A DNA stretch of 64,000 nucleotides from Escherichia phage KKE7M. Made by a program: the position numbers and the translations under genes. Where the stretch lies: sequence record PQ356295.1, one strand, 5' to 3'. The stretch's first letter is position 1. Every line of letters begins with the position of its first letter. This document shows positions 8,176 through 57,084 of the stretch, piece after piece. The notes under the pieces were generated by a model, which saw nothing but the letters and a program-made list of their open reading frames with translations, made no database searches and was not told the origin of the DNA.

Positions 8176-9147
8176 ATGGCAGATTCTATTTCAGCAAAAA
8201 TTATTGCACACTCTCAAACATCTGAAGGTAAGGATATTGTTACCTTTGAACTTGAATATCCTCGAATCATTCACTCTGAATTGATGACGCATCGTTTGTT
8301 TTCTCGTAATGCTGCATCAAGTCGAGCTATCCCTGTTAAAACTCTAATTGAAATGGTACGGCAATCTCCAGCACGTCCTTATCGTTTTGGTGCTAACCAA
8401 CCAGGTATGCAAGATAAAGGCACAGATCACGATGCCCTAATTGATGCAGGTTACACTGCAAAAGAATGGTGGGACTTGGCTGCACTAAGTGCTGCACGTT
8501 TTGCAGAAGAGTTTGCCCTTGCTGGTTATCATAAACAGGTTGCAAACCGATTACTAGAACCATTCCAGCGTATGAAGACTGTAGTAACCACTACAGAGTT
8601 AGAAAACTTCTTGTGGTTGCGCGTAGATGCTGATGCAGATCCTACTATTGAGGCTCTTGCTAAAGAAATTAAAAAACTGTATGAATCTTCTGAACCATAT
8701 CTTCTTTTCCCAGGGGAGTGGCATACACCTTACGTTAATCGTGATCGAGATCCAGAAACTGGTATGATCCGTTATTTCTTGGGTGAAACCTTCTCCAACG
8801 AGAAAATGTTGACAGAAGACGAAGCAAAAGCTATTTCAGCTTCTTGTTGCGCTCAGGTAAGTTATCGTAAGTTGAATGATACTAAAGATAAAGCATTGGA
8901 TATCTATTCTCGTTTGCTGTCTGGACAAAAGGTACATGCATCTCCGTTTGAACACCAGGCAACGCCAATGAAAGAAATGGATTTGTCAGGATTAAAACAA
9001 CAGAAAGGTGGTATTAATATTCCTCCGTTCCCTTCCTCTTGGGAAGAAGGTATTACACATATGGATCGTAAACATCGTTTGTGGAGTGGAAACTTCTGCG
9101 GTTGGATTCAACATCGTCAACTTTTGACTAACCATACAAAATGGTGA
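8176..9147 (+). CDS. thyX: flavin-dependent thymidylate synthase ThyX
   Basis: ELMTHRLFSRNAASSR (ThyX RHR-x7-S-like motif) and HASPFEH. Confidence 0.7.
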   Translation: MADSISAKIIAHSQTSEGKDIVTFELEYPRIIHSELMTHRLFSRNAASSRAIPVKTLIEMVRQSPARPYRFGANQPGMQDKGTDHDALIDAGYTAKEWWDLAALSAARFAEEFALAGYHKQVANRLLEPFQRMKTVVTTTELENFLWLRVDADADPTIEALAKEIKKLYESSEPYLLFPGEWHTPYVNRDRDPETGMIRYFLGETFSNEKMLTEDEAKAISASCCAQVSYRKLNDTKDKALDIYSRLLSGQKVHASPFEHQATPMKEMDLSGLKQQKGGINIPPFPSSWEEGITHMDRKHRLWSGNFCGWIQHRQLLTNHTKW

Positions 9148-9164
9148 TCAACTTAAAATTATAG

Positions 9165-9223
9165 TTGACTTTTAATTGAGATTCGTGTAGTATAGGCTAA
9201 CGTTAGGAGAGCTATGCTCTCCT
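9165..9223 (+). promoter_or_regulatory. sigma70-like promoter TTGACT-N17-TAGTAT followed by perfect 8-bp stem AGGAGAGC/GCTCTCCT
   Basis: Read directly upstream of gene starting 9245. Confidence 0.45.
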
Positions 9224-9244
9224 TAAAAGAGAGAAGGAGAATTT

Positions 9245-9655
9245 ATGTCACTAATTAATACAACCATTTGGGCGACCGTAAGTATGTCTACCATTAAGGC
9301 TACACCGATCTGGAAAGAAATGGCTAAAAAGCACGGAGGAAAAATTCCTCACGAATATCATAACACTACATTGCGAGCAGCATTAGTAATGCTTGGTATG
9401 TCTACCGATGGACATTATACAGTAGAACGTGGTGTTAATATTCGTAGTAACAACAATCGACGTGTGGTGTTTGCAAATACTACATTGTATACTTTCCCAG
9501 TTCGACAGGACTATAAATATAAGCGAATCTATCAAGGTGTAGATATTTTGCACTTTGGAGAAGAAGATTTTACAGGTTGGGGTAGCTCTCATATCAAAAT
9601 GGAAGACTTCGGAAATGAACATGATCCATCACGAGATGATGATTCTGAATTCTAA
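9245..9655 (+). CDS. hypothetical protein (136 aa)
   Basis: ORF with GAAGGAG RBS. Confidence 0.5.
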   Translation: MSLINTTIWATVSMSTIKATPIWKEMAKKHGGKIPHEYHNTTLRAALVMLGMSTDGHYTVERGVNIRSNNNRRVVFANTTLYTFPVRQDYKYKRIYQGVDILHFGEEDFTGWGSSHIKMEDFGNEHDPSRDDDSEF

Positions 9656-9916
9656 TTGAGAGGCCAAATGACAGAAAGTAATAAATATGAAGGCTGTGAA
9701 ATTGAAGTCTATTTTGATGAAACATTAGGTTGCAATGTAACAGTTATCCTTGATACATCTAAAAGATTATCCCCAAAAAGACAAGAAGCAGACCGCAAAG
9801 CAAAGGCAAAAGGTTTTGAAGGTATAGATCATTTTGAAGGTTTTCTATACGCAAATGGCTTATATAATGAGATGCGTGGCGGTTATGATGTAGATGTTCT
9901 AAACATGCACAATTAA
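9656..9916 (+). CDS. hypothetical protein (86 aa)
   Basis: ORF abutting upstream stop. Confidence 0.45.
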   Translation: MRGQMTESNKYEGCEIEVYFDETLGCNVTVILDTSKRLSPKRQEADRKAKAKGFEGIDHFEGFLYANGLYNEMRGGYDVDVLNMHN

Positions 9917-9927
9917 TAGGAGAGGAA

Positions 9928-12189
9928 GTGACTCAGTATCTAAGCAAATCTATCCGTTATGTAACAAAAACAAACGGCAAGAAAGAAGAATTTAATCCAG
10001 AAAAACTTCGTAAATGGTCAGAGTTTGCTGCTGGTAAATTAAATTGGTCTGAAATTGAACTCGAAGCTGTTAAACGTTGTTACGACGGTGTGCCTACTCG
10101 TGATTTACATAAAGCTATGATAGCAGCATGTATTGATAAGAAAGATCAGGCATATAGTGATATGGCAGGTCGGTTACTTCTTGGTATGATTTATAAACAG
10201 GCTCATGGGGGATATCATAATATCCCCTCCCTCCTGGATTTCTACAATATGTCTGTAAGTAAAGGCTATTGGGGAAAAATGGATTATACAGAAGAAGAAA
10301 TTATTGAGATTGGTAAAATTGTCGATCACGATAAAAACCTAACTTATGGTTATTCCGTACTGCGCCAGATGGTTGATAAGTATCTTGTGAAAGATGCGAT
10401 CAATGATGTTGTTTTTGAATCACCACAGTTTTTATTCATTGGTGTAGCAATGAAGGTAATGGAAATTCAACCAAAAGATCGCAGAGTAGAAGACATTAAA
10501 CGTCTATATACCTACGTAAGTGATCTCAAGATTAATTTACCATCGCCTTATTTAACAACTTTGCGTACTAAGATTAAAGGTAGTGCTTCTTGTTGTCTGT
10601 TTAGAGCAGATGATACAGCAGAATCTTTAGCAATTGCTAACTATCTTGCGCATGAATATACATTGAATAATGCAGGTATTGGTGTTAACCTCCAAACCCG
10701 TGCTACAGGACAAGGTGTTAAGAACAACCGTATCGTTCACGGTGGTCTTTTACCATACCTGAAATGGATGGAGACAAGTGTTGGAGCATCAAAACAAGCA
10801 AGTCGTGGTGGAAGTGCAACAGTAACGTTTACAATATTAGAACCTGATTTTGAAGATCTGGTACGTTTGAAAAACCCAACTACTGTTAGTGAAAAACGAG
10901 TAGATAAACTTGATTACTCTATCGTAGTAAACAATGCTTTCCTGCGTCGTGCAGCAAAAGGTAAAGATTGGATGCTAGTCAGTTATGACGAAGCACCAGA
11001 ACTCTATGAGGCGCTTTATAAAAGCGAGGAAGAGTTTGAAGAAGTATATGAAAAAGTTAGTCGCAAACGAATTAAGAAGAAGTTTGTAAAAGCACGAGAT
11101 CTTCTGGCAGAAATTATTACACAAAGAGCAGAGACAGGACGTATTTATATGTTCTTTGCGGATAATGCTAATAAGCATACTCCGTTTAAGGATGTTATTT
11201 ACCAGTCAAACTTGTGCCAAGAAATTTTCTTACCTACGAAAGCATTTCACAATATGACTGATCTTTTCACAGGTGAGAATACAGAAGATCAAGAATTGGC
11301 ATTATGCTTCCTGTCTTCTATTGTAGCTGGTCGTGTTACACCAGAAGAATATGAAGATGTTGCATATTATACCGTTCTGACTATTGATAATGTTATTGAA
11401 ACAATGCAGTATCCGTTTAAACATAACGAAATCACTGCTAAAGCACGTAGGTCTATCGGTGTAGGTATTACAAACCTTGCACATTATCTGGCAAGTAATT
11501 TTGTTACTTATTCAGATCCTTACGGCAAAAAACTAATTCATGAATTAGCAGAAAGACATTATTATTGGTTAGCAAGAGCTTCTCTTCGTTTGGCAAAAGA
11601 GAAAGGTAATGCAGAATGGATGCATAAAACCAAATGGCCTGGAGGATGGTTGCCTATTGACACCTACGCTAAAGCTGTAGACGATATTGGCAATTTTAAA
11701 CTTAAAATGGATTGGGAAGGTTTACGACAAGATATCATTGCACAGGGCGGTATCCGAAATAGTGTATTAGCAGCTATTGCTCCAAATGAGTCCAGTAGTC
11801 TTGTAAGTAATACGACTAACTCTGTGTATCCTGTACGTGATACTATAGTTTATAAACAAAGCCAAAAGGGTAATGTTCTGTTTATTGTGCCAGACTACGA
11901 TAAACTAAAAGATATTTACCAATCGGCTTGGGATACACCAGATAAAGATATGGCTGAAGCATATGGACTGTTGACTAAATTCTTAGATCAAGGTGCATCA
12001 TGTGATAAGTGGATTGACTATTCTAAGATGGAAGGTGGTCGTTTATCCATTAAATCAGAAATGCAATATATTCTTCAGTTTGCAAAACTTGGTGGTAAAT
12101 CTTTGTACTATCTAAATAGCAGAACAAAATCGGCAACCTCACTCGCTCAAGAGGATGAAGAATCCGGTTGTGAGGCTTGTAAGATGTAA
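9928..12189 (+). CDS. nrdA: ribonucleotide reductase class Ia large subunit
   Basis: 753 aa; GTG start after AGGAGAGG; NLCQEI active-site motif, C-terminal CEACKM tail. Confidence 0.9.
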   Translation: MTQYLSKSIRYVTKTNGKKEEFNPEKLRKWSEFAAGKLNWSEIELEAVKRCYDGVPTRDLHKAMIAACIDKKDQAYSDMAGRLLLGMIYKQAHGGYHNIPSLLDFYNMSVSKGYWGKMDYTEEEIIEIGKIVDHDKNLTYGYSVLRQMVDKYLVKDAINDVVFESPQFLFIGVAMKVMEIQPKDRRVEDIKRLYTYVSDLKINLPSPYLTTLRTKIKGSASCCLFRADDTAESLAIANYLAHEYTLNNAGIGVNLQTRATGQGVKNNRIVHGGLLPYLKWMETSVGASKQASRGGSATVTFTILEPDFEDLVRLKNPTTVSEKRVDKLDYSIVVNNAFLRRAAKGKDWMLVSYDEAPELYEALYKSEEEFEEVYEKVSRKRIKKKFVKARDLLAEIITQRAETGRIYMFFADNANKHTPFKDVIYQSNLCQEIFLPTKAFHNMTDLFTGENTEDQELALCFLSSIVAGRVTPEEYEDVAYYTVLTIDNVIETMQYPFKHNEITAKARRSIGVGITNLAHYLASNFVTYSDPYGKKLIHELAERHYYWLARASLRLAKEKGNAEWMHKTKWPGGWLPIDTYAKAVDDIGNFKLKMDWEGLRQDIIAQGGIRNSVLAAIAPNESSSLVSNTTNSVYPVRDTIVYKQSQKGNVLFIVPDYDKLKDIYQSAWDTPDKDMAEAYGLLTKFLDQGASCDKWIDYSKMEGGRLSIKSEMQYILQFAKLGGKSLYYLNSRTKSATSLAQEDEESGCEACKM

Positions 12190-17136: not shown

Positions 17137-17963
17137 CAAAATTTTTAGTCTTTGGTTCAAAAGGTCAATTAGGACAGTCTTTGGCAAAAGTTGCGCCAGA
17201 AGATGTTATTTTGATTGAAGCAAGTGATGTAGACATTACCAACTTTAAAGATGTTATGGATAGTCTTGTACAACATATGCCTGATGTTGTTGTGAATTGT
17301 GCGGCTTACACGGCAGTAGATAAAGCGGAAGAAGATGTTAACACCTGTATAAATGTTAATGCATACGGTGCAACAAACATTGCCAAAGCATGTAATGATT
17401 TACTGATACAGTTTGTACATATTTCAACAGATTATGTTTTTGATGGGAATGTTGCTGGCACAGAAGATAGTAAAACAAACCCCTTGAACATCTACGGTTA
17501 CAGTAAACAATTAGGTGAAACTTTAGTACAAACAGTTTGTCCTACAGCACTTATTATCAGAACAGCTTCTGTTTATAGTGAATTTGGACATAACTTTTTG
17601 AAAACTATGTTGGAACGCTACAACGGTGGTCAAAAAGAATTTAATGTAGTGTGTGATCATTTATCATGTCCTACTTATGCACCTGATCTTGCAGAAACAA
17701 TTTTTAAACTTGTAAAAGATGGTGTAAATAGTAAAATTGTACACTATGCAGGTGCAGATTATATTTCTTGGTATGATTTTGCACGAAAGATATTTCTTGT
17801 TATAGATTTATCTGTTACAGTTAATCCTGTATCTGCTTCAACCTATAATTCAAAAGCAGTCAGACCAGCAACATCTTATTTAAAAACAGATCCTACTTTA
17901 AATCCGCGAAGTGTTGATAGCGGTATTGTAAGAACTTTAACTATACTTTTAAACAAGGAGTGA
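17133..17963 (+). CDS. rmlD: dTDP-4-dehydrorhamnose reductase
   Basis: TTG start overlapping rmlC stop; FGSKGQLGQ Rossmann motif; operon context. Confidence 0.85.
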   Translation: MTKFLVFGSKGQLGQSLAKVAPEDVILIEASDVDITNFKDVMDSLVQHMPDVVVNCAAYTAVDKAEEDVNTCINVNAYGATNIAKACNDLLIQFVHISTDYVFDGNVAGTEDSKTNPLNIYGYSKQLGETLVQTVCPTALIIRTASVYSEFGHNFLKTMLERYNGGQKEFNVVCDHLSCPTYAPDLAETIFKLVKDGVNSKIVHYAGADYISWYDFARKIFLVIDLSVTVNPVSASTYNSKAVRPATSYLKTDPTLNPRSVDSGIVRTLTILLNKE

Positions 17964-17965
17964 AA

Positions 17966-18226
17966 ATGAATTTTATTATCTACGGTAAACCAAATTGTCC
18001 TTTCTGCACTAACGCTAAGATTCTACTGGAACAGCGTGAACAGGATTTTAAATACCTTACCTTAGATGAAGACTATTCTTTAGATCAGATTCAGAATCTG
18101 GTTTTAGAGAAAACAGGTGTTCTACCACGCACATTTCCTCAGATTTTTGTGGAAGATGGTGAACAGCTAACCCACGTAGGAGGTTTTTCTGAACTACGTG
18201 AATTCATGGCTCAGATTGCGGAGTAA
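17966..18226 (+). CDS. glutaredoxin/thioredoxin-fold protein (NrdC/NrdH-like)
   Basis: CPFC active site in IYGKPNCPFCTNAK; ~87 aa. Confidence 0.8.
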   Translation: MNFIIYGKPNCPFCTNAKILLEQREQDFKYLTLDEDYSLDQIQNLVLEKTGVLPRTFPQIFVEDGEQLTHVGGFSELREFMAQIAE

Positions 18227-32005: not shown

Positions 32006-32293
32006 TTATTTGCTTTCACGAGCAAAATAATAATTTTCATATTCATTACGTGTAACGATTTCTGGATGATCAGGTTCACCGTAACTAAGTTTAACTTCAG
32101 GATACACTTTGGTGTTGAATAGACACGTAACACCTCTCATATAATATCCTGTAGGACTTAAAACAACATCATCTTCACTTACACTTGAGAATTTTATTTC
32201 ACCATTAGTATCTTTGACGACAATAAGAGCATGTTCAGGCCAATCAAGATTCTCTTCTTTTAGTTTTTCATAAACTTCTTGTACTAGTTCCAT
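32006..32293 (-). CDS. hypothetical protein (95 aa)
   Basis: ORF with GGAGG RBS. Confidence 0.5.
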   Translation of the reverse strand: MELVQEVYEKLKEENLDWPEHALIVVKDTNGEIKFSSVSEDDVVLSPTGYYMRGVTCLFNTKVYPEVKLSYGEPDHPEIVTRNEYENYYFARESK

Positions 32294-43186: not shown

Positions 43187-43546
43187 ATCAGACTCCTTTA
43201 TAAATTTACGTTTCATGCTACACATCATACAGCGTCTTTTCATCTATTACAAGAACAGCAACCTAGAAACATCATTAATAGAGGAATTAGTATAGGATTT
43301 CCCTATCAATTATTCTATATATACCTAATATTTTTAACACACCCCTTTGTACATAATATAGACAAATAAATATCTATGCCACAAAAATTTTCCGGTATAC
43401 CCGATTTATTTCGACACACCCCCTTTTCATAAGCGTAAAGCCAATAATATCAATAACTTGCCGCAAAATACTGCTCGCTTGCGAGAGGTGCTTAACGCGA
43501 TTTTTAGCGCCCCCGATTTCTGCCGACCGTCCCCCTCAAATATCAA

Positions 43547-43561
43547 TGAGAATTATTATCA
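43547..43561. promoter_or_regulatory. Fur-box-like 7-1-7 palindrome TGAGAATTATTATCA
   Basis: 14/15 match to TGATAAT-N-ATTATCA. Confidence 0.45.
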
Positions 43562-43741
43562 TTTGCATTATCATTCAATGACTTATAAGACTTTTGATTA
43601 TTTTCTGAGCAAGAAAGGCACTACTCACAACAAAACAGATAAATTATAAGTAAATCAATGACTTGGCAAGTCTAAACATCTATATACACCTTGCCAAATG
43701 AAATGATCCTGCGTGAAATAGTGCTACCCGTGGAAGATAGC

Positions 43742-43756
43742 TGATAATGATTATCA
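43742..43756. promoter_or_regulatory. Fur-box-like palindrome TGATAATGATTATCA (perfect 7-1-7 match), with TATACT -10-like hexamer 14 bp downstream
   Basis: Exact match to Fur 7-1-7 consensus TGATAAT-N-ATTATCA. Confidence 0.55.
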
Positions 43757-44279
43757 TTTGCATATTTTCTATACTATAAAACTACCTAAAAATCAAGATA
43801 ATTCTGATTTATTGCGCTTTTAAGAGAATAGGCTCAACAAATAGGCTATAACTATGCTCAACAAATGATAGGTTATATGGGGCAATAGTATGAAAAACCA
43901 TCTATTCAGATATAAATAATTTTGCGCAATAATGGTGATATTTTTCTTGACAAGAAAGATTTCTTTGTGTTCACATAGCGTCCCCTGGAAGGTGGCGCAT
44001 TATGATCATCAATGTCATTGTTCACGATGTTTATTATTGAATAGCTTATTATATGTAGCTTATATTATAGCCAATGTTCCAAACATTAGCTAATAATAAC
44101 GCACCGCAACAATGTAAGGGATACAATATACCATGTATATTGTTGCGCTTGCAATTGTTGCAAGCTACATAAGCACAAATAATAACTATCGGTGATGGTT
44201 ATTATGTGGGGTGTGTAGTTGCGTTATTATTAGCCGCCTATGTGTCCGGCATAGGCTGCTAATGATACGCTTGCTAATT

Positions 44280-44640
44280 ATATTTCTTGTTATAATTATT
44301 GTATGAAATGATTACGGTATGAAATGATTATTTAGGTAATAGATAGTAAGGTAAAGATTAGATCATAAATAGATAGGATATTAATTATTTAGTAATGTTA
44401 CTAACAATTTAATAGTTACTTTGTGCAACAATTCGATAGATTATAGTTATAGTTTTAAAGGTTAGATAGATTATATTTAGCTTGGTAATGATTTATATTA
44501 GTTATTGTTGTTTAATATAAGGTTATCAATGAGATAGTAACAGTAAGTTATAAATAAAGGTGAAATAATTAGCTTTAATTTAGTTAGATAACTTATTATT
44601 TTATAGGTTAGATGGTCATAAGTTAAGAATGATTATCATT
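44280..44640. repeat. AT-rich iteron-like repeat block (TAGATAG repeats, 14-bp direct repeat GTATGAAATGATTA x2)
   Basis: Read directly; ORF-free. Confidence 0.5.
44624..44638. promoter_or_regulatory. Fur-box-like palindrome TAAGAATGATTATCA
   Basis: 13/15 match to 7-1-7 consensus. Confidence 0.4.
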
Positions 44641-44681
44641 ATTGCATTATGCAGTTTATTGCATAAATAATCAGCTATAAA

Positions 44682-44696
44682 TGAGAATGATTATTA
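44682..44696. promoter_or_regulatory. Fur-box-like palindrome TGAGAATGATTATTA
   Basis: 13/15 match to 7-1-7 consensus. Confidence 0.4.
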
Positions 44697-44903
44697 TTTA
44701 AGAGGAAAGACAAGAAAAAGGCTGTTTTTGCCAGATAGTTACATGGAGAAATTAAAAATAAGCGGTCTAAAACACGTTGTAAGCGCCTTATGATCTTCAT
44801 GGTATGGTTGTTCATCTGCTCCTTGATTAGCTCGATACCGCGATCTATTCACTTTTTTCGGTGAACGTTTTTGATAGGTAAAAGCTATCATCTTTATTTA
44901 GGT

Positions 44904-44930
44904 AAAAAGAAAGGGCGCTTTGTGCGCCCT
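44904..44930 (-). terminator. terminator hairpin GGGCGC-TTTGT-GCGCCC with flanking A/T tracts
   Basis: Downstream of minus gene ending 44946; same hairpin family at 46082 and 50473. Confidence 0.55.
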
Positions 44931-44945
44931 GGTGTGAAATGTTAT

Positions 44946-45329
44946 TTACTGATAAGCTGGATCGTTTGTTATATCAATCCAATGAGCTAAATTAATTTTA
45001 TTTTTTGCTTTCATTTTCTCGATCAAACGTTCGGCTAATGTCTCGGAACGAATATAAACATGCTCGCTAAAATCTTGCCCCGTTTCCTCGTCGATCATCT
45101 CGCGATATTCAATTTTCCCGATAAACGCATGATTCAGCGCATAAGTTTTACCCGTGTACCAGTTGTGCAAATGAATCTCACATTTATAATCATCGCTATA
45201 ACCTTCGGTTGTTCTAACTTCAACCAGATCGCCTTTAAACACTGATAAGCACCACATAGGATCACGATCTACAGCGCCGTTAAAGTCTTTACCGTTTACA
45301 GTAGCCGCCAGGTTGATGATATTGCTCAT
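44946..45329 (-). CDS. hypothetical protein (127 aa)
   Basis: Start refined to MSNIINL with GAGGAA RBS. Confidence 0.5.
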   Translation of the reverse strand: MSNIINLAATVNGKDFNGAVDRDPMWCLSVFKGDLVEVRTTEGYSDDYKCEIHLHNWYTGKTYALNHAFIGKIEYREMIDEETGQDFSEHVYIRSETLAERLIEKMKAKNKINLAHWIDITNDPAYQ

Positions 45330-55451: not shown

Positions 55452-55718
55452 ATGACAAATACTCCTTTACATCTCATGCACTCATTGGGCTGGCAAGGCG
55501 GCACGGTGCACCAGGTAGCAAGCGCAACGGGCTTAAAGGTTGAAACCGTTCTCAACCTGGGCGATCATAAGGTGGAAGAGATAGATCATTTTGATACGTT
55601 CGCAAATGGTTATCTATGGGCTTGCAGTGGCGGCGGGGAAAGCAAGATCCCACCAGGGGCGCGGGGCGACATGTATTTTTGGTTAGGTGTCCTATCCTGG
55701 CAAGAAAACAAAAAATAA
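55452..55718 (+). CDS. hypothetical protein (88 aa)
   Basis: ORF; promoter-like TTGCTA-N17-TATTAT upstream. Confidence 0.45.
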   Translation: MTNTPLHLMHSLGWQGGTVHQVASATGLKVETVLNLGDHKVEEIDHFDTFANGYLWACSGGGESKIPPGARGDMYFWLGVLSWQENKK

Positions 55719-55721
55719 TCT

Positions 55722-55750
55722 TGACAAGCCCAGGGATCGGGCTTATACTG
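55722..55750 (+). promoter_or_regulatory. sigma70-like promoter TTGACA-N17-TATACT
   Basis: Points into ORF-free Fur-box/repeat region. Confidence 0.4.
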
Positions 55751-55981
55751 TTTTACATACAGAAGAGGAAGCGCCACCCCCACGGCGTAAAGGCGGGGCT
55801 AACATACCAGGGGGGCACTGGTTGGAAGGTTGATCGCCGGTAGCTCGTCTAAAATAAATTTGTAAAGAAATGTAAAGATAAAAATAATCGCTTGCTTTTG
55901 TTGTTGGTTATGCTATTCTTATTGTATGGCGAGGGGACACGGGAGCGCGAGACAAACACCACCCCTGCGCGTTATTCTCTA

Positions 55982-56000
55982 AATGAGAAAAATTCTCATT
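55982..56000. promoter_or_regulatory. palindrome AATGAGAA-AAA-TTCTCATT
   Basis: Perfect inverted repeat related to adjacent Fur-box-like sites. Confidence 0.4.
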
Positions 56001-56024
56001 TGCTAACGATTCTCATTCTCTTAC

Positions 56025-56039
56025 TGAGAATGATTATCA
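56025..56039. promoter_or_regulatory. Fur-box-like palindrome TGAGAATGATTATCA
   Basis: 14/15 match to 7-1-7 consensus. Confidence 0.5.
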
Positions 56040-56053
56040 CTTACATAATTAAA

Positions 56054-56068
56054 TGATAATGATTCTCA
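56054..56068. promoter_or_regulatory. Fur-box-like palindrome TGATAATGATTCTCA
   Basis: 14/15 match. Confidence 0.5.
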
Positions 56069-56076
56069 TTTACAAA

Positions 56077-56091
56077 TGAGAATGATTATCA
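56077..56091. promoter_or_regulatory. Fur-box-like palindrome TGAGAATGATTATCA
   Basis: 14/15 match. Confidence 0.5.
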
Positions 56092-56116
56092 TACGCACAC
56101 CTATAAAAACACGAAA

Positions 56117-56320
56117 TTGAACTTTTCATTTTTGATTTTTCTACGGAAAAAGGCAAAAAAACTTTAAATAAACTGGGGAATTTTTAAAAAATTGAAGTTT
56201 TCATTTTCAAAATCTGGATAGAAATACATACAAAAACTTTAAATAATTTTGACCAAACTTGAACTTTTCATTTTCTAAATTTGTACCCAAAAATCTGTAA
56301 AAACTTTAAATAATTTTGTA
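56117..56320. repeat. three tandem ~67-77 bp repeat units, each with boxes TTGAA(C/G)TTTTCATTTT and AAAAACTTTAAATAA
   Basis: Box 1 at 56117, 56192, 56259; box 2 at 56154, 56231, 56300. Confidence 0.6.
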
Positions 56321-56532
56321 CTTTTTATAAAAATGATTTTACTGTTCTGTTATAAGTAGTAGTTAAGAGATAGTATGTCTTTTAAAGATCAGATACCATA
56401 GTCCAACAAACAAATTAAATACTTTATTAACAGGGTATAGAATACTACTTACTCTGGATATATTATTCAGAGGGTGAATTTCCGTACATGAAACCCACAC
56501 CCCTTTTTATAAAAATAAAAATTTTCAAAATA

Positions 56533-57084
56533 TCAGGAAATATCAGATTGTGCTTTTAGATAAACAGCAAGGTCTGTATGCCATTTTCCTAAAAGATTTT
56601 GTCCTTTCCAACAATCCTTATTTTCCACGTCACGATCCCACATCCCCATTTTGATACCATAAATAGAATCATAAGGGCTTGCCTCTACGAACTCCTTATC
56701 TGCGTAAGCGATAAGTTTATTTTTGAGATCTTCATTTTGTGTGTATTTAAGATACAAACCACGCTTGACAATCTTCTCCCGTAAAGAAGCCCAAGTATCT
56801 TCATCGTAATCTTTAACTAATCTACCTAGTCGCTTATAATATGCCTGTTCTTTTTCTCCTGTATATCTTAGATCTCCGGTTAAAATAGAAGATGCAATGT
56901 TGTAATCATAAAACAAACATGCTTTTCTCCACATCATATATTGTTCCACACAAGTAAATTCAACAGAACTTGTAATAGAATTATTATACTTGGGTGCTAA
57001 AGGTTCAATAAAAGATGATAGATACCAGTTGCTAAATTCATCTTTTGCTGAAAAGAAGAACACATACTTATCAGTAATCCGCAT
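56533..57084 (-). CDS. NADAR (YbiA-like) family protein
   Basis: VFFFSAKDEFSNW and CVEQYMMWRKACLF match YbiA FYS...FSNF and SEHYFQAQKF; NLLGKWHTDLAVYL C-terminal match. Confidence 0.65.
   Translation of the reverse strand: MRITDKYVFFFSAKDEFSNWYLSSFIEPLAPKYNNSITSSVEFTCVEQYMMWRKACLFYDYNIASSILTGDLRYTGEKEQAYYKRLGRLVKDYDEDTWASLREKIVKRGLYLKYTQNEDLKNKLIAYADKEFVEASPYDSIYGIKMGMWDRDVENKDCWKGQNLLGKWHTDLAVYLKAQSDIS

Follow-up and report, generated by a model that had tools for sequence, protein, structure and literature searches.

Most bacteria have Fur as their master regulator of iron, and palindromes resembling its operators were reported by a first-pass annotation in a non-coding region of about 1.7 kb of Escherichia phage KKE7M (PQ356295.1), which raises the question of whether these are genuine Fur operators and what role they may play in a lytic phage. 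The window analysed here comprises 64,000 nucleotides of this phi92-like coliphage, which is a member of the Justusliebigvirus genus in the subfamily Stephanstirmvirinae and has a whole genome of about 146 kb. Clustered and conserved Fur sequences of operator grade occur far beyond chance at two cis-acting hubs of the window, and, as judged by their sequence, these palindromes are almost certainly operators for the Fur protein of the host.

Fur-like sites in the window

The sites are located in two non-coding regions, the first of which includes the direct terminal repeat (DTR) of the phage.

43542-43572, no strand: Fur array 1, three overlapping 19-mers in 6-bp steps (15.4, 20.3 and 15.3 bits), in the DTR
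43742-43761, no strand: Fur site 2, a perfect 7-1-7 palindrome with 17 of 19 positions matching GATAATGATAATCATTATC (24.8 bits), in the DTR
44625-44643, no strand: Fur site 3 (21.6 bits), in unique non-coding DNA of the right end
44677-44701, no strand: Fur site 4, two overlapping 19-mers (14.0 and 16.9 bits), in unique DNA of the right end
55985-56096, no strand: second Fur array, about five boxes in 112 bp

The perfect 7-1-7 15-mer reported by the first-pass annotation (TGATAATGATTATCA, 43742-43756) is exact, and its near-matches at 43547, 44624 and 44682 are all present, with one, two and two mismatches, respectively. When up to two mismatches to the 15-mer were allowed, nine matches were found in the window versus 1.1 expected from dinucleotide shuffles, and none of 100 shuffles reached nine. 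Three of the nine belong to a second cluster (56025-56091), part of the denser array at 55985-56096 that had been overlooked, as had the 342-bp DTR and concatemer junction within the region described as non-coding.

A symmetric 19-bp Fur matrix was refined on 15 intergenic regions of E. coli K-12 MG1655 that are classical targets of Fur regulation (fepA-fes, fepD-entS, fepB-entC, fhuA, fur, fiu, fhuE, tonB, cirA, exbB, feoA, ryhB, fecI, fecA and fhuF), around which approximately 284 kb of MG1655 DNA, selected as rich in Fur promoters, was taken. The consensus of the rebuilt matrix is the textbook GATAATGATAATCATTATC. The phage sites score 15-24.8 bits versus 7.6-22.5 bits for the E. coli training sites, so that the phage site at 43743-43761 (24.8 bits) exceeds the best training site despite the latter being inside the matrix. 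At a threshold of 16 bits, 11 matches were identified in the window as compared with an expectation of 0.80 from dinucleotide shuffling, with none of 200 shuffles reaching 11, and nine of the 11 lie in two non-coding spots spanning about 3 kb. Local shuffling gave the same picture for both regions, with four matches observed versus 0.08 expected in 43250-44900 (31% GC) and five versus 0.03 expected in 55850-56560 (28% GC), neither number being reached in 1000 shuffles. The remaining approximately 82 kb of the genome, for which the close relative VivaForever was scanned, contain a single match of at least 16 bits and none of at least 18 bits, and 50 kb of phage T4 (34% GC), used as a control, contain no match of at least 16 bits. 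A matrix scan against shuffled sequence and the rest of the genome was the check that the first-pass annotation had proposed, and its outcome is clearly in favour of the sites. The two other strong matches in the window are isolated, one at a gene junction in coding-dense DNA (17962-17980, 21.1 bits) and one within an ORF (open reading frame; 32026-32044, 18.0 bits); they were not retained as part of the system, as the number of such isolated matches fits chance.

The arrangement of the sites is likewise that of Fur operators. Overlapping matches are phased by 6 bp at 43542/43548/43554, 44677/44683, 56049/56055 and 56072/56078, and Fur clusters have been described as overlapping sites 3 or 6 bp apart (PMC2189734). 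When compared with the consensus, in the form of GATAATGATAATCATTATC, the 7-1-7 palindrome TGATAATnATTATCA or a hexamer array, 43743-43761 matches at 17 of 19 positions and contains the perfect 7-1-7 sequence, and eight further sites have 3-5 mismatches. At the sequence level, the phage sites agree with the Fur-operator family in consensus, matrix score, specificity and 6-bp clustering.

The terminal repeat and its Fur sites

For the first region, the absence of coding capacity noted previously holds, the longest ORF in 43244-44945 being at most 63 amino acids (aa), and minus-strand genes flank it on both sides. This non-coding region is 92-97% identical over its full length to those of phi92-like coliphages.

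43493-43834, no strand: DTR equivalent of 342-343 bp, aligning to both annotated DTR copies (DTR-L and DTR-R) of phi92 (FR775895.2)

The phi92 record (FR775895.2) annotates direct terminal repeats of 343 bp, and a DTR of 342 bp was given in the BME3 paper for a phage of the same genus. The KKE7M repeat was placed by alignment to phi92, its termini being assigned by homology. Because both phi92 copies align inside 43493-43834, the 1.7 kb region is a concatemer junction; virion DNA carries the DTR at each of its two ends, and each such junction has a single copy. The left end of the virion DNA thus reads DTR-L, 43492-43250 and the early genes, and the right end reads the terminator of the gp248 homologue, 44900-43835 and DTR-R. 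When a 29-mer of the DTR was used to search IMG/VR for further phi92-like terminal repeats, no match was obtained.

The two best sites are both in the DTR and hence duplicated in the virion. The distance to the inner DTR boundary is 49 bp for Fur array 1, and that to the outer boundary is 73 bp for Fur site 2 (phi92 positions 74-92 from the genome end). Fur array 1 and Fur site 3 are kept in inny, Paula and phi92. In phAPEC8, which represents another genus and is about 73% identical in this region, the conserved islands are the DTR boundaries, Fur array 1 in a variant form, sites 2 and 4, and a hairpin block, and Fur site 3 is weak. Site 4 scores 16.9 bits in KKE7M and 18.1 bits in phAPEC8 via different substitutions.

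The boundary sequences conserved between the genera are GTGCTTAACGCGA at the inner end (43486-43505) and GCTCAACAAAT at the outer end (43829-43866), and they are candidate cutting or recognition sites of the terminase. The outer motif is duplicated 24 bp further on (43829-43842 and 43853-43866).

The first-pass annotation had also described a TATACT hexamer downstream of the perfect site as the -10 element of a classic Fur-repressed promoter. The hexamer is present at 43770-43775, 13 nt from the box, but this layout is not borne out: no usable -35 hexamer is located at 16-18 bp, the promoter scan lists none there, inny has TGTACT in its place and phAPEC8 lacks the hexamer, and the element would be aimed at the physical genome end about 60 bp away. 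A better candidate, which reads towards the early genes, is located between the two DTR sites.

43669-43697, minus strand: promoter-like site between Fur array 1 and Fur site 2, TTGGCA-17-TAGACT (TTGACA in phi92), a consensus match

The second Fur array and its promoters

The second array is situated 12 kb from the DTR in a gap of about 1.3 kb between minus-strand genes. Its boxes start at 55985 (14.9 bits), 56002 (18.7), 56026 (16.6), 56049/56055 (15.9/21.1) and 56072/56078 (18.0/18.7), and three promoters or promoter candidates precede or overlap them.

55721-55749, plus strand: promoter P1, near-consensus sigma-70 (TTGACA-17-TATACT), upstream of a 125-nt element
55892-55919, plus strand: putative promoter P2 (TTGCTT-16-TATTCT), both hexamers conserved and the spacer variable in eight sequences
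56063-56092, plus strand: candidate promoter P3 (TTCTCA-18-TATCAT), with its -35 and -10 hexamers inside Fur boxes 4 and 5

An alignment of eight sequences (KKE7M, phAPEC8 and six rV5-like contigs from IMG/VR) revealed a conserved plus-strand order of P1, the 125-nt element, TGTAAAGAAATGTAAAGA, P2, a GC hairpin and the first Fur box. This first box has a fixed position and distance from the conserved promoter in seven of the eight sequences, the exception being L057 with an insertion of about 40 nt, and the number of further boxes varies from one to five copies across the aligned relatives. P2 reads into the array, the first box being located about 55 nt downstream of its predicted start.

The 125-nt element itself (55752-55878) is 83-91% identical in IMG/VR contigs and in very distant rV5-like phages whose hosts are Klebsiella, Proteus, Pectobacterium, Enterobacter and Pantoea. 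No Rfam family matches it, and most of those records annotate no feature at this position. In the IMG/VR relatives and phAPEC8, a Fur box is found approximately 95-145 nt downstream of it. Folding of the element on either strand showed no excess stability (z = -0.15 and -0.32), and the alignment fold contains almost no covariation, as the element is too invariant. The GC-rich hairpin between P2 and the first Fur box (55935-55978) has a covarying stem, GCGCG...CGCGC here and CCGG...CCGG in contigs of the L032 type, with a conserved loop ACAAA(A)CACC. Immediately after the array, three direct repeats of about 75 bp (TTGAACTTTTCATTTT...AAAAACTTTAAATAA) form a block of 28% GC (56114-56334) that looks origin-like or promoter-array-like.

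Assignment of the sites to host Fur

A reciprocal matrix was built from nine phage sites alone. When the 284 kb of E. coli DNA were searched with it, the 17 best matches were all in Fur-regulated promoter regions, ahead of the first unrelated one, and the promoters recovered are those of ryhB, entC, fhuF, fur, entS, fiu, oppA, fhuA, cirA, fecI and fhuE.

The distribution of one exact 20-mer, AAATGAGAATGATTATCATT, is informative as well. It was found in at least 120 IMG/VR contigs, as compared with no match for the reversed and one match for the shuffled control 20-mer. By their flanks, the viral matches listed represent at least 63 unrelated contexts, and 58 of these are situated outside long open frames. 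In seven of these contexts, a count taken with no chance control, a sigma-70 promoter matching the consensus at 10 or more of 12 positions has its -10 hexamer 12-30 nt upstream and fires into the box, and in some contexts the box directly follows the -10 hexamer in the manner of a repressor operator. The genes beside the viral boxes are small phage hypotheticals with no iron function, and control of an iron cargo gene was rejected for this reason.

In bacterial genomes, at least 120 stretches contain the same 20-mer, and they come from Proteobacteria, Cyanobacteria, Firmicutes, Chloroflexi and Actinobacteria. Of twenty genes drawn at random among those immediately downstream of these bacterial copies, three encode TonB-dependent receptors, three encode binding proteins of the iron-type SBP_bac_6 family and two encode DUF2325 proteins, and there is one gene each for a Fur-family regulator, an IucA/IucC-FhuF siderophore protein, a rubrerythrin, a ZnuA-type binding protein, a PepSY_TM protein and an ABC ATPase. 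This composition is that of a typical Fur regulon. The outcome of the reciprocal matrix, the viral spread of the 20-mer and its placement in bacterial Fur regulons make a phage-specific binding protein unlikely. The reading of these sequences as Fur boxes rather than generic AT-rich palindromes, proposed in the first-pass annotation, is accordingly upheld by the E. coli and reciprocal matrices, the 6-bp phasing, the conservation across genera and the identical 20-mer upstream of Fur-regulon genes in bacteria.

Proposed control of phage transcription by iron

Both possibilities raised at the outset, iron-responsive control of phage transcription and titration of host Fur, are compatible with the sequence results. 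It is probable, although far from certain, that Fur binding is the selected property and that the arrays gate or roadblock sigma-70 transcription according to the iron status of the host, with titration as a consequence. Selection would keep Fur operators at two control regions, namely the DTR and concatemer junction beside the early genes, and the internal hub of rightward promoters. In an iron-replete cell, dimers of Fur with Fe2+ may bind the overlapping 6-bp-phased boxes cooperatively, and the bound protein would block or roadblock transcription starting in or just upstream of the arrays, the promoters affected being P2 and P3 (55.9-56.1 kb) and the DTR promoter (43.7 kb). In an iron-starved cell, apo-Fur would depart and the transcripts would be released, so that part of the phage programme would read the iron state of its host.

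Several observations weigh against such gating. In the DTR, no strong promoter overlaps a Fur box, and the promoter-like site at 43669-43697 is not retained in phAPEC8, with array 1 lying about 90-120 nt downstream of its predicted start. P3 is weak (9 of 12 consensus matches) and partly conserved, its position not being conserved, and no ORF of 45 aa or more was found on the plus strand downstream of P2 and P3. The genes flanking the Fur regions are small hypothetical early genes, none of them iron-related, and repression of phage transcription under plentiful iron has no obvious benefit.

Titration of Fur as an alternative

If Fur does bind, titration would be unavoidable, with at least nine strong sites per genome and 11 per virion DNA because of the duplicated DTR. 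Replication would soak up Fur, the iron-uptake and iron-sparing regulon of the host would tend to be derepressed, and the iron-dependent ribonucleotide reductases of the phage could benefit. It is possible, if rather unlikely, that this is the selected function, promoter effects being incidental; the arrays would then titrate Fur as the genome multiplies, much like a Fur-box plasmid in the Fur titration assay (FURTA), and turn on iron uptake and RyhB-mediated iron sparing for the iron enzymes of the phage. Multicopy Fur boxes on FURTA plasmids derepress the chromosomal Fur regulon, and a replicating genome with at least nine strong boxes is formally equivalent, although FURTA is a laboratory copy-number artefact and titration during infection is hypothetical.

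Such a sponge would account for boxes in tandem without an obvious regulated gene, most evidently the five in 112 bp at 55985-56096, for the variation from one to five copies among relatives, for the tandem 23-bp box units in the T5-like phage Gostya9, and for a density of at least nine strong sites per phage genome versus 13 in the 284 kb of E. coli DNA rich in Fur promoters. The phage genes include NrdAB-like and NrdDG reductases, and a virulent Pseudomonas myophage strongly derepresses the siderophore genes of its host by an unknown mechanism (PMC5563952); together these provide a rationale for titration, not proof. On the other hand, the first box of the second array and the DTR boxes are fixed relative to conserved elements, a constraint that a pure sponge would not require, and many uncultivated phages have a single box just past a strong promoter. 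Moreover, derepression by T5 of FhuA, its own receptor, would be expected to trap progeny, which also counts against a sponge. Transcription gating, titration and an architectural role are not mutually exclusive.

Fur-like boxes in T5 and a possible architectural role

For T5-like phages, Fur-like boxes were found in a comparable setting. In Gostya9, reached via a BLAST match, ten matches of at least 13 bits and up to 21.8 bits are located in non-coding terminal-repeat DNA (1865-2603), where the boxes form tandem 23-bp units adjoining DnaA boxes. In T5 itself (NC_005859), the annotated injection stop signal (iss; 9140-10149) contains an array at 9549-9712 (14.5, 18.4, 20.3 and 20.5 bits), which is separated by a few hundred bp from the inner terminal-repeat end and has DnaA boxes, a nick at 9748 and the first-step-transfer shear point at about 9618 bp as neighbours. 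The strongest of these boxes (9653-9712) coincide with the stop point of first-step transfer. The function of the T5 iss has been credited to DnaA, and Fur is nowhere mentioned in that analysis, the most detailed of recent ones on the region (bioRxiv 10.1101/866236).

The T5 iss and terminal-repeat repeats resemble the KKE7M region in being non-coding, repeat-laden DNA near a terminal-repeat boundary with Fur-like units, but they differ in having paired DnaA boxes, large inverted repeats (IRC/IRD) and a 10-kb repeat. AT-rich repeat blocks accompany both KKE7M Fur regions (44290-44620 and 56114-56334), but DnaA boxes (TTWTNCACA) are absent from either region, and the T5-like DnaA model does not transfer to KKE7M for this reason. 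The T5 terminal-repeat proteins, including A1 and the DNA-binding A2, have no homologue in KKE7M either, so that by both features neither region qualifies as an injection stop signal of the T5 type. Two-step injection is a feature of T5 that is not known for phi92-like phages, and only the Fur-like units are common to both.

These arrangements bear on the suggestion that Fur polymerised on the arrays acts in the entry of DNA, in terminal-repeat processing or packaging, or in the initiation of replication rather than in transcription switching, in a manner likened to that of IHF at lambda cos. Such a role appears improbable, more so than that of a sponge. It draws on the location of the two best sites 49 and 73 bp from the two DTR boundaries, on the position of the T5 array (18.4-20.5 bits) near the DnaA boxes, nick and shear point of the injection stop signal, on boxes beside DnaA boxes in some viral contigs (L045, L120), and on the very AT-rich, origin-like block with three repeats that follows the second array. 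However, the second array lies far from the DTR, neither KKE7M region contains DnaA boxes, two-step injection is without support in phi92-like phages, and the co-location could reflect the fact that early promoters are also at genome ends.

Binding of another protein, either a phage-encoded repressor or a different host factor, to sites merely resembling Fur boxes is very unlikely. The units do share an asymmetric extension, TAAATGAGAATGATTATCATTTGCA, and phi92 gp005 is annotated as a predicted transcription regulator; however, a second 19-mer at an offset of 6 bp accounts for the extension, the motif occurs in phage lineages without any detectable common candidate protein (T5 A2 and others being without homologue here) and in bacteria of many phyla upstream of Fur-regulon genes, and the reciprocal matrix recovers Fur promoters only. 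Chance occurrence of functionless AT-rich palindromes, for which the low GC content of the regions (31% and 28%) might speak, is refuted by the local dinucleotide shuffles, the T4 control and the conservation of the sites across genera.

Relation to known systems

The Fur sites of KKE7M can also be compared with three other known situations. The chromosomal and plasmid-borne Fur operators of E. coli (for example fepA-fes, entC, ryhB, fhuF and the aerobactin operator of iucA) have the same 19-bp consensus and 6-bp-phased clusters, and the phage sites score equally or higher. They differ in that the phage sites have no iron gene downstream and belong to a virulent phage, in which they occupy the terminal repeat and an internal non-coding hub. 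For the most part these sites lack a clear overlapping promoter, and they reach a density of about five boxes in 112 bp.

In temperate phages, host Fur sites are also found on phage DNA. The stx1 genes, for example, are Fur-controlled cargo of a temperate phage. On lambdoid coliphages, a Fur box controls the sitABCD cargo (PMC6969025). In these cases a single operator precedes an iron or toxin cargo gene in a prophage, whereas KKE7M is lytic, has no cargo gene and carries arrays in cis-acting regions.

Lytic cyanophages provide a third parallel, as they possess NtcA and PhoB boxes, which are host transcription-factor sites ahead of identifiable genes. In both cases a virulent phage appears to wire its promoters to a regulator of host nutrient status, but in cyanophages the regulator and the nutrient are different and terminal-repeat arrays are not known.

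In the openly searchable literature, which leaves most subscription journals outside its scope, no description of Fur boxes was found for either lytic coliphages or the T5 iss, and a preprint on a genome-wide screen mentions neither fur nor iron. Fur arrays in the terminal repeats or control hubs of lytic phages, common to unrelated lineages, appear to be undescribed in that literature. It is conceivable, if doubtful, that they constitute a widespread and undescribed class of cis-elements with which virulent phages either soak up Fur, and so unlock iron uptake and iron sparing of the host, or use DNA-bound Fur as a structural anchor at genome ends. Under the anchoring version, the host factor long sought at the T5 injection stop signal would be Fur, acting in place of DnaA or alongside it; the host component of this stop is an old open problem for which Fur is a concrete new candidate.

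More generally, phages may commonly sense or hijack the iron control of their hosts. If high-affinity Fur arrays are routine in virulent phages, infection outcome, the timing of phage genes or host iron uptake may depend on iron status, and iron is scarce in the gut, urine, blood and the ocean, which are niches of phage therapy and phage ecology.

Neighbouring genes and other features

The first non-coding region is bounded on its upper side by the phi92 gp248 homologue, a minus-strand gene whose end at 44946 precedes an intrinsic terminator.

44912-44930, minus strand: intrinsic terminator closing the upstream minus-strand operon (phi92 gp248) and bounding the non-coding region; an annotated terminator in Paula and phAPEC8

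On the other side, a cluster of small genes homologous to phi92 gp002-006 starts at 43243 and runs leftward, its first ORF being absent from phi92. The motif ACACACCCC(C)TTT, which reads AAAGGGGTGTG on the minus strand, is located upstream of minus-strand gene blocks at 43332-43348, 43409-43425 and 56488-56500, and may be a phage-specific promoter element; the copy at 43332-43348 is conserved in phAPEC8 together with an adjoining TATATA stretch.

Between the DTR and Fur site 3, a structured block (44089-44262) contains a perfect 15-bp long-range inverted repeat (44089-44103 and 44220-44234) enclosing several hairpins, and may form a structure, in either RNA or DNA, at the right end of the genome. 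The hairpin next to it, GCCTATG...CATAGGC, reads CGCTATG...CATAGCG in phAPEC8, which amounts to compensatory changes. The adjacent stretch (44290-44620) is very AT-rich, with iteron-like short repeats (TTAGATAGATTATA, GGTTAGAT and ATGAAATGATTA), and is mostly without counterpart in phAPEC8. A search of the whole window against Rfam at the gathering threshold gave no family match, and over 55600-56200 at an E-value of up to 1 the sole match was a plant miRNA, which is meaningless.

Four records labelled as Campylobacter phage with C. jejuni as the host (MG065639, MG065645, MG065656 and MG065689) are about 94% identical to KKE7M over the whole query, and are probably mislabelled or contaminant genomes.

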